Positions 18,098 to 31,258 of a stretch of 64,000 bases of DNA are shown piece by piece (position 1 is the first letter of the stretch; each line of letters starts with the position of its first letter). Source of the DNA: a virus (lineage: Duplodnaviria > Heunggongvirae > Uroviricota > Caudoviricetes); IMG/VR virus record IMGVR_UViG_2974574300_000001, positions 1 through 64,000 of that record; one strand, 5' to 3'. A program made the translations under genes and the position numbers. The notes under the pieces were generated by a model. The model saw only the letters and a program-made list of their open reading frames with translations, had not been told where the DNA came from and did no database searches.

Positions 18098-26113
<8,016 letters not shown>

Positions 26114-26115
26114 TA

Positions 26116-27282
26116 ATGGCAGTAGGTGAAATTCAAATTAGTGCCTTGCCTCAAGCAGCCTTACCAATTGACCTTAGTGATATCTTCCATCTTAAGCAGG
26201 GTATTGAGGATAAGAGATGTACTCTTGAGCAATTACTTGCTCCACACTCAAGCCTAAGAAATAACCCTCACGGTGTTACTAAAACACAAATTGGTTTAGA
26301 TAATGTTATCAATGCTCTTCAGTTAGTTGCTGCAAATAACTTATCAGATGTTGCTAATGTCACTGAGGCAAGAGCAAATCTACAGATTATGTCTTCAGAA
26401 GAGGTTAATAGTCTTGTTCAACAGCATATTAATGATAAAAGTAACCCACACAATACAACTAAGGCACAGATTGGTTTGAGCAATGTCCAGAACTGGACAA
26501 CATCTAATCTTTATAATGAAGATGCAGATAAGTACGCTACAGCAAGAGCAGTAAATAACTTGTACAAGGCTGTTCAGGCTTCTTATCCAGTAGGTACTAT
26601 CCATCTCTCTATGAATCCTGCAAACCCTTCTACATATTTAATTTGTGGGGGTACTTGGGAGTTAGTTTCAAGAGGAAGAGCACTTGTAGGTTATGATAGT
26701 GATTCTAGGCCAGTTGGTAGTAACTTTGGCTCAAGTAGTGTTAGCTTATCTAGTAACAACCTACCATCACATAGCCATTCAATCTACCTAACTGGTGGTG
26801 GACACACTCATGGTGCTGCTATTACTATTGATGGCTTTGATTACGGCAATAAGAGCACAAACAGTTTCGATTATGGAACAAAGACCACTAATAGCACTGG
26901 TGCTCACACCCACTCAGTGAGTGGTTCAACAAATACCACAGGTAATCACACACATACTGTAGGTGGTCGTTATGGTGGTGACTCTATCGGTGGTAAACCG
27001 CGTGTTCAGGTATCTGGTACAGAACAGGTTTCCAGTGTAGCTGGTGACCACTCACACACTATTAGCGGTTCAACAAATACCACAGGCAATCACCAACACA
27101 CTGTTGCAATTGGTGCTCACACGCATACTGTTGCAATTGGTGCTCATACCCATAAAGGCACAGTAACTTTGCAGTCATCTGAGCATACTCACTCAGGTAC
27201 TACAGGTACTACAGGTGCTGGTCAAGCATTCAGCGTTGAACAACCATCCTTTGTGGTTTATGTATGGCAAAGAACCGCTTAA
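26116..27282 (+). CDS. tail fiber protein with C-terminal HxH repeat tip domain
   Basis: repeats GAHTHSVSG, GNHTHTVGG, GDHSHTISG, GNHQHTV, GAHTHTV; shares near-identical nucleotide blocks with 28741-29676. Confidence 0.7.
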   Translation: MAVGEIQISALPQAALPIDLSDIFHLKQGIEDKRCTLEQLLAPHSSLRNNPHGVTKTQIGLDNVINALQLVAANNLSDVANVTEARANLQIMSSEEVNSLVQQHINDKSNPHNTTKAQIGLSNVQNWTTSNLYNEDADKYATARAVNNLYKAVQASYPVGTIHLSMNPANPSTYLICGGTWELVSRGRALVGYDSDSRPVGSNFGSSSVSLSSNNLPSHSHSIYLTGGGHTHGAAITIDGFDYGNKSTNSFDYGTKTTNSTGAHTHSVSGSTNTTGNHTHTVGGRYGGDSIGGKPRVQVSGTEQVSSVAGDHSHTISGSTNTTGNHQHTVAIGAHTHTVAIGAHTHKGTVTLQSSEHTHSGTTGTTGAGQAFSVEQPSFVVYVWQRTA

Positions 27283-27295
27283 AAATTCTTTTACA

Positions 27296-27318
27296 GGGGG
27301 CTGTACAGCCCTCTTTCT
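27296..27318 (+). terminator. possible terminator hairpin after fiber gene
   Basis: GGGGGCTG-TACAG-CCCTC hairpin followed by T-rich TCTTTCT. Confidence 0.35.
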
Positions 27319-27332
27319 AGAGGACAAAAATA

Positions 27333-28694
27333 ATGGCAGATTACAAATTGAGTGAATTAAACTCAATCGATACAATCCGTTCAGACGACCTTCTTCATGT
27401 CAGGGTTAAAAAGAGACCTGAAATGCTGGGTGATGAAGACCGTCGAATGACCTATCAAGACTTCTTAGCATCTTTTAAGCTTGAAAGATTTGTTCAGATT
27501 GCTGGTAGTACTATGACTGGTGACTTAGGGATTGTTAAGTTACTTTATGGTGGTAAGGCAGTCTTTGACCCTACAGGCTCTTCCGAGATTACTATGGGGG
27601 ATGTTTTAAAGACTTTTAAAATTAATGCAAATGGTCTTAAACTAACTATTGCAGATGCTTCAAGGTCTGCAACTGTTTATCATACTCTTAATAAGCCAAG
27701 TCCTAATGAGCTTGGGATGAGAACTAATGAAGAGAATGATGCAAGATATGCAAGGCTTGCTGTCACAAACACATTCTCTGGGACTCAGAACATTCAAGGT
27801 GATGTTAACTTACTTCGCCTTAGAAACCAAAATGCAAATAATGCACAATATATTGAAGGTGTAGACCTAGATGGCTCGGCTAGATGGTTGGTTGGTATTA
27901 GTAAAAATGGTTCTGATGCAGTGCAGTTGTACAATAATAAATATGACTCAGCTTTGACTATTGCAAGTAATATCTCTGTTAATAAGTCTTTAGCAATCAC
28001 TGGTCAAGTCCAACCTTCGGATTTCTCTAACTTAGATGCTAGATACTTTACTCAGACAGTTGCTAATCAGAGATTTGCACAGTTAGCTGGGAATAACACT
28101 TTTACAGGTGCTAATACTTTCACTAACCTTGTTGTTAAGAAGAATGCTAATGCTATTACTTTGCAGAATACTGATGCAGGTACAGCACTTTATATTCTCG
28201 GTAAGAGGTCTGATGGAACAAATAAATGGTATGTTGGTACAGATTCTGATGAGACACGTCTGAACATTTATAACTACCTTACAGGTTCACAGGTTTCACT
28301 AGGGACTACTATTGGTATTAATAAAACCGTGCAAATCAATGGTCAAGTTCAGCCATCTGATTGGACTAACATTGACTCTAGATATATTCCGGCAGCAACA
28401 TTAAGTACAATTGCAAGAACTAATGCACAAAATACTTTTAATGGTGCGCAAACAGTTGTTAGTGATGGCGAAGGTTTAGTTATTAAAAACTCTACTCAGA
28501 ATAGGCCATTGTATATTCGTGGTAAGGACGCTGCCAATGTATCAAGATGGTGGTTAGGTGTTGGTGACCCAAATTCTACTGATGTAGCCTTAAACAACAG
28601 CTTCTCTGGCACTCAGTTAATTTTAGGTAACTCATCTGCAAGTATCAATAAGACATTAACCCTAGCAGCAGATTCAACCTTCAGATTTCTCTAA
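27333..28694 (+). CDS. tail fiber protein (shaft) with repeated QPSDxxNxDxRY linker motifs
   Basis: 453 aa; internal repeats INKSLAITGQVQPSDFSNLDARY and INKTVQINGQVQPSDWTNIDSRY; third copy is split between frames at the 3' end. Confidence 0.65.
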   Translation: MADYKLSELNSIDTIRSDDLLHVRVKKRPEMLGDEDRRMTYQDFLASFKLERFVQIAGSTMTGDLGIVKLLYGGKAVFDPTGSSEITMGDVLKTFKINANGLKLTIADASRSATVYHTLNKPSPNELGMRTNEENDARYARLAVTNTFSGTQNIQGDVNLLRLRNQNANNAQYIEGVDLDGSARWLVGISKNGSDAVQLYNNKYDSALTIASNISVNKSLAITGQVQPSDFSNLDARYFTQTVANQRFAQLAGNNTFTGANTFTNLVVKKNANAITLQNTDAGTALYILGKRSDGTNKWYVGTDSDETRLNIYNYLTGSQVSLGTTIGINKTVQINGQVQPSDWTNIDSRYIPAATLSTIARTNAQNTFNGAQTVVSDGEGLVIKNSTQNRPLYIRGKDAANVSRWWLGVGDPNSTDVALNNSFSGTQLILGNSSASINKTLTLAADSTFRFL

Positions 28695-28740
28695 CTTAGA
28701 TGCTAGATATTACACGCAATCTACCGCAAACTCTAGGTAT

Positions 28741-29676
28741 ATGCTTGCTTATTCTTCTGGCACTGGTACAGAGGTAGGTGATAGTGATGGCATTGCTTGG
28801 AATGCTAAAACTGGTCTGTATAATGTTACAGGTTATAGTGGAGGCTCAACACAGCTTGTTTTCCAAATGTATCAGGGTGCAAGCTCTACTCCCTCTGCTC
28901 AATTAAAATTCAACTACAGGAATGGGGGTTTTTGGTATAGGTCATCAAGGGATGGTTTTGGTTTTGAAGAGGACTTCACACAAATTTATACAGAGAAGTA
29001 TAAACCAACTCCTTCAGCTATTGGTGCATACACTAAAGCAGAGACTGACCAGAAGATTGCAGAAGCGATTAGTGACTCTACAGACCTTAATAAAATCTAT
29101 CCAGTAGGTATTGTAACGTGGTTTAACAGTAATGTTAACCCTAATACCGCACTTCCTGGATTAACTTGGACGTACCTGAACAATGGTGTAGGTAGGACAA
29201 TCAGGGTTGCAGCAGCTAATGGTTCAGATGTTGCTACAACTGGAGGCTCAGATTCTGTTACGTTAGCAGTTGGAAACTTACCTTCACACACTCATAGTTT
29301 CTCTGCGACAACCTCTAGCTTTGACTACGGTACTAAAACCACTAACACTACTGGTGCTCACACCCACTCAGTGAGTGGTTCTACTAACAACACTGGTGCT
29401 CATACACATACAGTTGGTGGTCGTTATGGTGGTGACTCTATCGGTGGTAAACATCGTGTTCAGGTCTCAGGGACTGAACAGGTATCTAGCTATGATGGTG
29501 CTCACTCTCACACTGTATCTGGTACTGCTGCCTCTAACGGAAACCATGCTCACACAGTTGGTATTGGTGCTCACAGTCATACAGTTAGTGGTAACACTGG
29601 TGGTACAGGTTCTGGTTCAGCATTTAGTGTAACTAACCAGTTCTATAAGCTGATGGCTTGGGTAAGAACTGCTTAA
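28741..29676 (+). CDS. tail fiber distal tip with HxH repeats (probably continuous with 27333-28694)
   Basis: C-terminal GAHTHSVSG/GAHTHTVGG/GAHSHTVSG/GNHAHTV/GAHSHTV repeats; frame open from 28666 encoding QQIQPSDFSNLDARYY upstream of the ATG. Confidence 0.65.
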   Translation: MLAYSSGTGTEVGDSDGIAWNAKTGLYNVTGYSGGSTQLVFQMYQGASSTPSAQLKFNYRNGGFWYRSSRDGFGFEEDFTQIYTEKYKPTPSAIGAYTKAETDQKIAEAISDSTDLNKIYPVGIVTWFNSNVNPNTALPGLTWTYLNNGVGRTIRVAAANGSDVATTGGSDSVTLAVGNLPSHTHSFSATTSSFDYGTKTTNTTGAHTHSVSGSTNNTGAHTHTVGGRYGGDSIGGKHRVQVSGTEQVSSYDGAHSHTVSGTAASNGNHAHTVGIGAHSHTVSGNTGGTGSGSAFSVTNQFYKLMAWVRTA

Positions 29677-29755
29677 TCCCTTATTGACTGATTGTTAAGA
29701 TGGTGTTAATATTCTTTATGGGTATTCTCACCATCTTGGCTGATGAGGTGATTAA

Positions 29756-29950
29756 ATGCCTACAATCCTAGCAATTCTCCTAAAAAATCTAGGTAGCTTC
29801 TTCTGGAAACTCATTTTATCCCTTCTAAGTGAATACATGATTGAGAAAGTGTTCTTTAAGCTTGCAAGATACCTTGCGGGTAAGACAGACACACCTATTG
29901 ATGATGAGTTCGTAGATAACTTAGAAAAAGCTTTTAAGGGGGAGAAATAA
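29756..29950 (+). CDS. small hydrophobic protein (possible membrane protein)
   Basis: 64 aa ORF with hydrophobic N-terminal helix. Confidence 0.4.
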   Translation: MPTILAILLKNLGSFFWKLILSLLSEYMIEKVFFKLARYLAGKTDTPIDDEFVDNLEKAFKGEK

Positions 29951-30316
29951 ATGAAGTGGCTAGAGGAAGCTTTTAAAAATAATATTGGTGCAATTGTTGT
30001 TGGTATTTTTAGTGTTATTGGGATGTATACCACGATGCAAGTTTCAAGTGGTAAGCAAGAAGTGTCTGTCACAACAAAGTTACAGCAGCTAGATAATTAT
30101 TCCAGAAGTAACTATTCAGCTATTCGTGATTTACAGTCTGACATGAGACTGATTCAGCTAGGGATGGAGAACCAGAAAGTTCAGTTAGAGAATGTTAAGG
30201 GTGAAAACGCAAAACTTACCAAAACCCTTGATAAATTCTCTGACAGTGTAAATAATCTGGCTCAATCAGTATCAGCCCTCCAAGCTATTACTGAGAAGAA
30301 CACAAAAGAACACTGA
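29951..30316 (+). CDS. membrane-anchored coiled-coil protein (possible holin/spanin-like)
   Basis: N-terminal TM helix IGAIVVGIFSVIGMYTT followed by coiled-coil rich sequence; located after tail fibers. Confidence 0.4.
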   Translation: MKWLEEAFKNNIGAIVVGIFSVIGMYTTMQVSSGKQEVSVTTKLQQLDNYSRSNYSAIRDLQSDMRLIQLGMENQKVQLENVKGENAKLTKTLDKFSDSVNNLAQSVSALQAITEKNTKEH

Positions 30317-30329
30317 AAATAAAATTTTA

Positions 30330-30360
30330 AGGCTCCTTTTTACGGGAGCCTTTTTGTTTT
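30330..30360. terminator. bidirectional rho-independent terminator between convergent modules
   Basis: AGGCTCC-loop-GGAGCCT hairpin with T-run on plus strand and A/T-run on minus. Confidence 0.65.
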
Positions 30361-31258
30361 ACTTACCTACTGACAAAGGTGCTTCAATCTTCCCTGCGTG
30401 TTTGTAGTTGTTAATACCACCAATAAAATCACTCGCAGTAAGGTGTTTTAGGTCACTTAGCGTGTTAAGTGGTAGACCAATCTCAAAAGTTGGTGCATGG
30501 AACTCTTCATTATTCATCAATTCATAAACCTGCTTCATATGGTTCTGATAAATCTGAGTATCCCCAAAGACACCTATCAAGTATCGTGGAGTGTACCCAG
30601 TCATCTTGCAAAGTACTTCCAGAATAAAACCATAAGATGCAATGTTAAACGGAAGTCCTAAAAAGGTGTCTACAGAACGTTGATACCATTGTAAGTCAAC
30701 TTCACCCTCGTTAGTGATATAAATCTGAAACAGAACATGACAAGGTGCTAAAGCCATCGAGTTGGATGCAATATCTGCTGCATTCCAAGCATTAACAAGC
30801 ATGTAGCGGTCTGTGATATCACCTTTCATCTTCGTTACTAAGGTCTCTAACTGGTCTACAACACAACCATTATGACCTTCAAAGTTTCTCCACTGAACCC
30901 CGTAGATTCTCCCACCTGCATCTTCTAACCAATCTTGTTCAGAAGAATAATTAGAGCTTAACCAGCGTTTAAAATCATCTGACCAGATAGTCCAGCGTTC
31001 TCCATCATTTTCACCCCAAGTACGGTAACGGAGTTCACCAAGTTTATTCTCACCGTTCAGGAACCATAAAGCTTCCCCAATAACTTGCCGTGTAAACACC
31101 TGTTTAGATGTTAAGAGTGGGAAACCAGTACGCATATCAAAACGAAATTGTGGTGGAGCGAATGCAGAGATAACATCTCCAGTTCGTGTAGTACGCAGTT
31201 CACCAACGGATAAAACATGGTTCAGGATATTTTTGTAACTTGAATCTGCTTGTGACAT
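30359..31258 (-). CDS. thyA: thymidylate synthase
   Basis: conserved ThyA active-site region PCHVLFQIY and YQRSVDTFLGLPFNIASY. Confidence 0.9.
   Translation of the reverse strand: MSQADSSYKNILNHVLSVGELRTTRTGDVISAFAPPQFRFDMRTGFPLLTSKQVFTRQVIGEALWFLNGENKLGELRYRTWGENDGERWTIWSDDFKRWLSSNYSSEQDWLEDAGGRIYGVQWRNFEGHNGCVVDQLETLVTKMKGDITDRYMLVNAWNAADIASNSMALAPCHVLFQIYITNEGEVDLQWYQRSVDTFLGLPFNIASYGFILEVLCKMTGYTPRYLIGVFGDTQIYQNHMKQVYELMNNEEFHAPTFEIGLPLNTLSDLKHLTASDFIGGINNYKHAGKIEAPLSVGK

Follow-up and report, generated by a model that had tools for sequence, protein, structure and literature searches.

The closest described counterparts of the fibre locus considered here are those of Bas63 (Escherichia phage JohannRWettstein, a Felixounavirus), for which cryo-EM revealed a C-terminal tip like that of T4 gp37 on both the short tail fibre (STF, gp26) and the long tail fibre (LTF, gp27) (Sci Adv 2025; PMC12609058). 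Bas63 virions bear both fibres, with variable occupancy of the LTF, and the tip of each is made up of a collar, a needle of six strands bearing conserved HxH motifs (seven in the STF and six in the LTF) and a head located where the chain doubles back (PMC12609058). The trimeric needle geometry has indirect support from the Bas63 cryo-EM density and AlphaFold 3 models, and the N-terminal region of the Bas63 STF was found to comprise a baseplate-binding domain and triple-helix-and-turn motifs (PMC12609058). In the literature the receptor of Felix O1 is LPS, with no assignment to either fibre. The presence of gp37-like HxH tips on both fibres of Felixounavirus is already known, and in this respect the core finding reported below is not new; the genes themselves share 95-98% identity with those of deposited phages.

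Felix O1-like phages serve Salmonella diagnostics and biocontrol, and their host range depends on these tips. Here we describe the fibre region of a 64,000-nt stretch of viral DNA (hereafter the window). The reading that we favour, with a probability of about 0.88, is built on the homology, domain order, frameshift and mosaic pattern of conversion observed in these genomes: the window carries a Felix O1-like pair of STF and LTF genes with gp37-type tips, in which a Salmonella-type head cassette has been repeatedly homogenised and the LTF gene is frameshifted. What is added here is the assignment of a near-identical block common to both genes to the distal needle and the presumed receptor-contacting head; the conversion pattern and an LTF-null allele shared with another phage are modest side findings beyond the published tip architecture. 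No description of recurrent STF-LTF head conversion or of an LTF-null allele was found in the searchable literature, and a literature search on descriptions of the phages ST11 or PMBT20 yielded nothing useful.

Genus and Gene Order of the Fibre Locus

The window contains the fibre region of a Felixounavirus (Felix O1-like myovirus), 3.5 kb of which share 98.3% identity with Salmonella phage PMBT20; for many other Felix O1-like phages the value is 92-97%. Matches to these 3.5 kb were found in 234 phage records, nearly all of them Felixounavirus. Across both fibre genes, each 200 nt contains 0-3 mismatches between PMBT20 and the window, the exception being 29111-29510 (see below). The gene order is that of Felix O1 (baseplate J-like wedge, DUF2612-like wedge, a 100-aa ORF, STF, LTF and two small ORFs, the second of which is annotated 'holin' in VSe11), followed on the opposite strand by thymidylate synthase and DHFR (td/frd), again as in Felix O1, and the two adjacent fibre genes lie between the baseplate wedge genes and the small ORFs with td/frd. 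The STF, a full-length orthologue at 388 aa, belongs to PHROG 2097 (E = 4.7e-140) and occupies the position of Felix O1 ORF76 ('putative tail fiber protein GP37'). The orthologues in Felix O1, PMBT20, VSe11 and ST11 share 92-98% nucleotide identity with the window genes, and these phages have the gene order of the window and, like it, carry the same head cassette on both fibres. The likeness to Bas63 extends to the same two adjacent genes, unrelated N-terminal shafts, gp37-like tips and six HxH motifs in the LTF; differently from Bas63, for whose needle seven HxH motifs are counted, the STF of the window has nine, and its LTF gene is frameshifted.

The coordinates of the features are collected in Table 1. 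An NCBIfam search of the three fibre ORFs gave no match, and when the STF and truncated LTF were looked up as exact proteins, no contig with either was retrieved. Inside the 50-nt gap between the STF stop and the LTF start lies a perfect 14-nt palindrome, GGGCTGTACAGCCC, at 27298-27311, followed by TCTTTCT; it was not called in the terminator scan, and the sites returned by the promoter and terminator scan of 25700-30400 were not above shuffle level.

Table 1. Features of the STF and LTF genes in the window.
Feature	Position	Strand	Basis
STF gene, 388 aa; counterpart of Felix O1 ORF76 and Bas63 gp26	26116-27282	+	98% identity to PMBT20 'tail fiber' CDS
STF N-terminal baseplate-binding and shaft part	26116-26583	+	no sequence similarity to LTF shaft (BLASTP E = 0.54)
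STF collar domain (gp10/gp11/gp12-like), from YPVG (aa 157)	26584-26769	+	
STF needle, outgoing strand, HxH 1-4	26770-26961	+	alignment to 2XGF
Shared nucleotide block, copy 1	26863-27060	+	direct-repeat search, 198 nt, 82% identity to copy 2
STF head (tip) cassette GGRYGGDSIGGKPRVQVSGTEQVSSVA, presumed receptor-contacting	26962-27042	+	aligns with T4 gp37 head segment; hypervariable across genus
STF needle, returning strand, HxH 5-9 (last 27184-27192), then conserved C-terminal tail	27043-27279	+	
LTF gene, disrupted here; counterpart of Felix O1 ORF77 and Bas63 gp27	27333-29676	+	one ORF, 781 aa, in relatives
LTF N-terminal ORF, 453 aa: baseplate-binding domain and three gp37_trimer repeat domains	27333-28694	+	Pfam gp37_trimer E = 2.4e-72, 3 stretches
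2-nt deletion, CTAGCA--GCAGATT vs CTAGCAGGGCAGATT in relatives	28667-28668	+	alignment with PMBT20 and VSe11
LTF domain similar to phage Mu S fibre (Pfam gp37_C)	28759-29061	+	phmmer PDB 8JU3 E = 3.1e-22; PF12604 E = 2.1e-34
LTF collar domain	29098-29286	+	
LTF needle, outgoing strand, HxH 1-3	29287-29409	+	phmmer 2XGF E = 1.7e-12
Shared nucleotide block, copy 2	29317-29514	+	partner of 26863-27060
LTF head cassette GGRYGGDSIGGKHRVQVSGTEQVSSYD	29416-29496	+	
LTF returning needle, HxH 4-6, then C-terminal tail	29503-29580 (HxH 4-6), tail to 29673	+	

The Split LTF Gene

The LTF is encoded by one continuous ORF (777-871 aa) in 29 of the 30 relatives examined, and is annotated as a single 2,346-nt CDS in PMBT20 and VSe11; it is likewise intact in Felix O1. 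In the window, a gene that is orthologous to these over its whole length is represented not by one ORF of about 780 aa but by ORFs of 453 and 311 aa, since a 2-nt deletion turns GGG into G and the upstream frame ends at the stop codon 28692-28694. Re-insertion of GG at this site restores the 781-aa LTF ORF, and the two ORFs divide a single protein family profile between them, PHROG 4277 (780 positions) being matched over positions 1-447 by the N-terminal ORF and over 471-780 by the C-terminal one. On this corrected gene model, the ORF at 28741-29676 is the 3' third of the LTF gene and no separate gene, a mechanical ORF that the deletion has left behind. The N-terminal ORF contains repeated QPSD(F/W)(S/T)N(L/I)D(A/S)RY junctions, and the deletion site lies 8 nt upstream of the third repeat-junction copy, QPSDFSNLDARY. 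Programmed frameshifting at 28667 was considered and is unlikely because there is no slippery heptamer in AAGACATTAACCCTAGCAGCAGATTCAACC; note also that the GGG is present in frame in all relatives except ST11.

The account that competes most seriously with a true frameshift is a sequencing or assembly error, in which GGG was read as G and the LTF is intact in the real phage. The deletion sits within a G run, the record of EC6 likewise has a split LTF, and the exact proteins of the window are without a record elsewhere, all of which would be compatible with such an error. However, this is the sole uncompensated indel in 9.5 kb aligned with PMBT20, and the identical allele (81/81 nt) occurs in a different deposited genome, that of Salmonella phage ST11 (MF370225.1), the only one of 50,697 phage records to share it; IMG/VR, scanned for the exact pattern, yielded no copy. 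The ST11 LTF carries, moreover, a second lesion, as expected for a decaying gene. We therefore regard the deletion as probably a real allele, while an error keeps an appreciable, if smaller, share of the probability.

Over most of 26316-28115, every 200 aligned columns hold 4-11 mismatches between ST11 and the window. The second lesion in ST11 is the loss of 181 nt from the repeat-domain shaft (equivalent to about 28128-28308 of the window); the junction shows microhomology of about 6 nt, and the ST11 LTF is annotated as three CDS pieces. The loss of the 181 nt looks like progressive LTF decay or else an assembly collapse of repeats.

Fibre Tips Resembling T4 gp37

Residues 146-359 of the STF align with residues 18-227 of the T4 gp37 tip chain (PDB 2XGF) at E = 2.5e-25, and the LTF tip matches the same structure in phmmer at E = 1.7e-12. 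The homology runs across collar, needle and head, the collar lies upstream of the needle as in T4, and HxH motifs are present on both needle strands. All seven iron-binding HxH motifs of T4 gp37 align to HxH in the STF and five align clearly in the LTF, and the SFDYGTK and GIGAHTHTV blocks are nearly identical. The window fibres differ from T4 gp37 in their unrelated shafts and in a head that is a different, shorter cassette, and the STF has two extra HxH motifs, one at each collar-proximal end; no gp38- or gp57A-type chaperone genes were identified beside the window fibres. Pfam Gp10_C (collar) is matched by both STF and LTF, and Phage_fiber (PF03335, gathering threshold 20 bits) is matched by the C-terminal LTF ORF in four stretches (47.3 bits, E = 1e-12) and by the STF at 20.5 bits, barely over the threshold. 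From this sequence homology, a gp37-like receptor-binding tip is predicted at the end of both fibres.

The nine HxH motifs of the STF (aa 219, 230, 264, 278, 312, 326, 335, 344 and 357; nt 26770-27192) compare with a mean of 1.4 and a maximum of 7 in residue shuffles, and the six of the 311-aa ORF (nt 29287-29580) with a mean of 0.27 and a maximum of 3; these controls, together with the homology, exclude chance low complexity as the origin of the HxH region. Between the C-terminal regions of the two fibres BLASTP finds 55% identity over 185 aa (E = 2e-53), while their N-terminal parts are unrelated. The initial annotation of this DNA had seen HxH repeats at both C-termini and one type of tip on two different shafts, and these observations hold. 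It had further named T4 gp37 and gp12 as bearers of such tips, of which the kinship with gp37 is borne out and that with gp12 is not: the two fibre tips gave no significant sequence match to gp12 or its receptor-binding domain, and a long multi-HxH needle is missing from the C-terminal domains of gp12, gp10 and gp11. It had also counted 28741-29676 as a fibre gene of its own, a view that gives way to that of an LTF gene split by the 2-nt deletion.

In comparison with the STF, the LTF needle has 21 aa fewer on the outgoing strand (one HxH) and 20 aa fewer on the returning strand (two HxH). These paired gaps fit a hairpin needle, because the needle length changes on both strands together. AlphaFold 2 monomer models had low confidence in needle and head (about 45-70; mean pLDDT 66-68), and Foldseek searches with these low-confidence models returned nothing significant.

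By analogy with T4 gp37, the STF and LTF tips would bind metal and be trimeric, and their receptor would be that of Felix O1-type phages. T4 gp12 (PDB 1OCY), the short tail fibre of that phage, contains a single HxH site that holds Zn rather than Fe. It might be argued from this case that the HxH ladder of the window fibres is only structural, or binds a metal other than iron, and that the 'metal-coordinating' label of T4 is not transferable. We consider this unlikely in view of the alignment of every one of the T4 gp37 motifs with an STF motif, and of the conservation of the needle HxH histidines, most of which are invariant or at least 90% conserved among 53-55 diverse homologues (12 columns in the STF-based and 11 in the LTF-based alignment).

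The LTF contains, in addition, a domain matching residues 329-427 of the phage Mu S fibre (8JU3) with its residues 477-577. In Mu this domain is near the C-terminus of the S/S' fibre (488-residue chain in 8JU3), whereas in the LTF it is internal and followed by the gp37-type tip.

Head Cassettes and Gene Conversion Between the Two Fibres

The nucleotide block shared by the two genes covers the head together with the distal part of the outgoing needle and the first HxH motif of the returning strand. Within it, the 29-mer GGTGCTCACACCCACTCAGTGAGTGGTTC has exactly two occurrences in the 64-kb window (26899-26927 and 29353-29381) and none in 100 shuffles. In a codon-window scan, STF and LTF are 80-91% identical in nucleotides inside the block; on its collar side, upstream, the value is 33-64%, and in the downstream flank it is 49-71%. 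Identity at third positions is about 0.8 in the block, against 0.1-0.7 (mostly 0.3-0.6) upstream and 0.2-0.7 downstream. The longest identical run between the window copies is 37 nt, which could be due partly to constraint (the permutation test ignores rate heterogeneity), and their head segments differ at 18 of 102 nt.

The genus was surveyed in a first comparison of 31 genomes (the window, two GenBank relatives and 28 IMG/VR loci), to which Felix O1, ST11 and seven more GenBank phages were added. Across the genomes compared, the STF genes have a conserved collar and proximal needle, and so have the LTF genes, while the head, lying between the last HxH of the outgoing strand and the first of the returning strand, is hypervariable. 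In the E. coli members compared (a set to which Bas63 was not aligned) the heads of STF and LTF are unlike each other, whereas members of the Salmonella clade, the window among them, have the same head on both fibres, GG(R/H)YGGDSIGGKxRVQVSGTEQVSS. A 111-nt query (26950-27060) covering most of the head and the flanking HxH matched 135 places in 76 phage records; Salmonella phages account for 70 of the 76, and most of these, such as Felix O1, have two copies. The head type of the window is thus found almost exclusively in members infecting Salmonella, where it is usually present on both fibres.

The block is a mosaic. Its nucleotides 1-93 sort by gene, with 17-28 differences between paralogues and 0-8 between orthologues (the exception being BPS17L1, with 3 paralogue differences), while the head segment (block nt 94-195) sorts by genome in several cases. 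In this segment the paralogues of PMBT20, UAB_Phi87, Seyj1-1 and BPS17L1 show no differences and those of Felix O1 six, and the heads of the four former phages are their own lineage-specific variants, the nearest orthologues being 1-8 differences away. The longest identical STF/LTF runs are 115 nt in PMBT20, 113 nt in UAB_Phi87 and 51 nt in Felix O1. Since four relatives have identical paralogue copies while their orthologues differ, the pattern indicates recurrent STF-LTF gene conversion of the head sub-module, as read from these alignments, and no single recent duplication. Transfer has gone in both directions, because the STF of BPS17W1 has LTF-type variants at block nt 66-87.

It could be objected that the tips are ancient paralogues whose block identity comes from purifying selection only, with no exchange between STF and LTF; SFDYGTK...GxHTHS is conserved in protein as far as T4 gp37, and the window heads have diverged to the extent given above. 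This is very unlikely, however, since it would leave unexplained the rise of third-position identity within the block relative to its flanks, the paralogues of four relatives that are identical over about 100-190 nt with lineage-specific synonymous variants absent from orthologues, and the LTF-type variants in the BPS17W1 STF.

Near-identical nucleotide blocks had already been noticed in the initial annotation, at about 26894 and 29352, close to the exact 29-mer positions, and had been ascribed to a recent duplication or exchange of a module. Exchange is well founded, given the head conversion in relatives; a single recent duplication is not, and since the heads differ at 18/102 positions, exchange in this genome does not appear to have been recent. 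The window copies are indeed among the least homogenised of the genomes compared, and the LTF head of PMBT20 has been converted to match its own STF head exactly, which that of the window has not. In the LTF collar, needle and head (29111-29510), the window and PMBT20 differ by 22-25 mismatches per 200, in a sharply bounded replacement tract. Part of this tract is due to the conversion of the PMBT20 LTF head from its own STF, and the tract as a whole shows quick turnover.

A Model of the Fibre Pair and of LTF Loss

A virion of this type would bear six STF trimers and, where the gene is intact, six LTF trimers, attached to different baseplate sites through the unrelated N-terminal domains. The needle of each tip would be a trimer of six beta strands, with every chain going out to the far end and returning, and each HxH, contributed by three chains, would hold one axial metal ion (Fe in T4) that stiffens the needle. 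The small head at the far end would contact the receptor, which for Felix O1-type phages would be the LPS core. The conserved HxH-repeat DNA that flanks the head would provide homology for recombination and probably anchors the conversion, so that heads could pass from one fibre to the other as well as from phage to phage; a phage whose two fibres share one head may be able to do without the LTF. The head can be regarded as a cassette of about 80-100 nt, flanked by HxH, swapped between fibres and tied to the host genus, and it constitutes a defined unit for host-range engineering.

Because of the deletion the predicted LTF ends after 453 codons and lacks the Mu S-like domain and the tip; therefore only the STF can display a head, unless the deletion is a sequencing error. 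If the natural frameshift is real, it would mean that the STF alone supports infection. The shared frameshift and the variable LTF occupancy in Bas63 are consistent with a tolerated LTF loss, and the LTF may be dispensable because, as we propose, both fibre sets would be directed at one LPS-core receptor. In the PhageMaP paper, which deals with the essentiality of Bas63 genes, a term search turned up nothing on the fibre genes. Tentatively, and at rather less than even odds, we suggest a causal chain in which conversion keeps the Salmonella heads alike on STF and LTF, both would then use the same LPS-core receptor, the LTF would become dispensable, and an LTF-null allele would circulate, as seen in the window and ST11. 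That the severed 28741-29676 piece is instead an independent, functional second short fibre gene is extremely improbable despite its ATG start, its 311-codon open frame and the annotation of the same piece as a separate CDS in ST11, given the single LTF ORF of the relatives, the PHROG 4277 profile divided between the two ORFs, a reading frame that is open 5' of ATG 28741 and carries on the repeat-junction motif QPSDFSNLDARYY, and the want of a baseplate-binding domain in a 311-aa product.

Other Tip Types and a Further HxH Protein

The LTFs of two E. coli Felixounavirus loci in IMG/VR (UViG_2706795709 and UViG_2706796285) are 84-88% identical in amino acids to T4 gp37 in the distal needle and head (101 residues), the T4-like head being EAWNGTG.GG.KMSSYA.SYR.GGSNTNA. 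This implies, as far as sequence likeness can tell, an exchange of cassettes between T4-like and Felix O1-like phages. In the wV8/EC6/HY02 group (six loci) the LTF has just four HxH motifs, and its distal region (RGTMEI.G.FG.FRSD...) is longer and of another kind; in BPS17W1 the distal region is much shorter. By their predicted layout, other kinds of tip are here mounted on one common collar and C-terminal frame.

Upstream of the fibre genes, a 207-aa central spike protein (22440-23063), which had no match at E <= 0.001 in a PHROG search, ends in NEHTHHYYW with an HxH at 23001-23009 (aa 188-190). The two histidines, H188 and H190, have the same residue numbers in the window and in Bas63, whose puncturing apparatus has an iron-binding motif modelled there.
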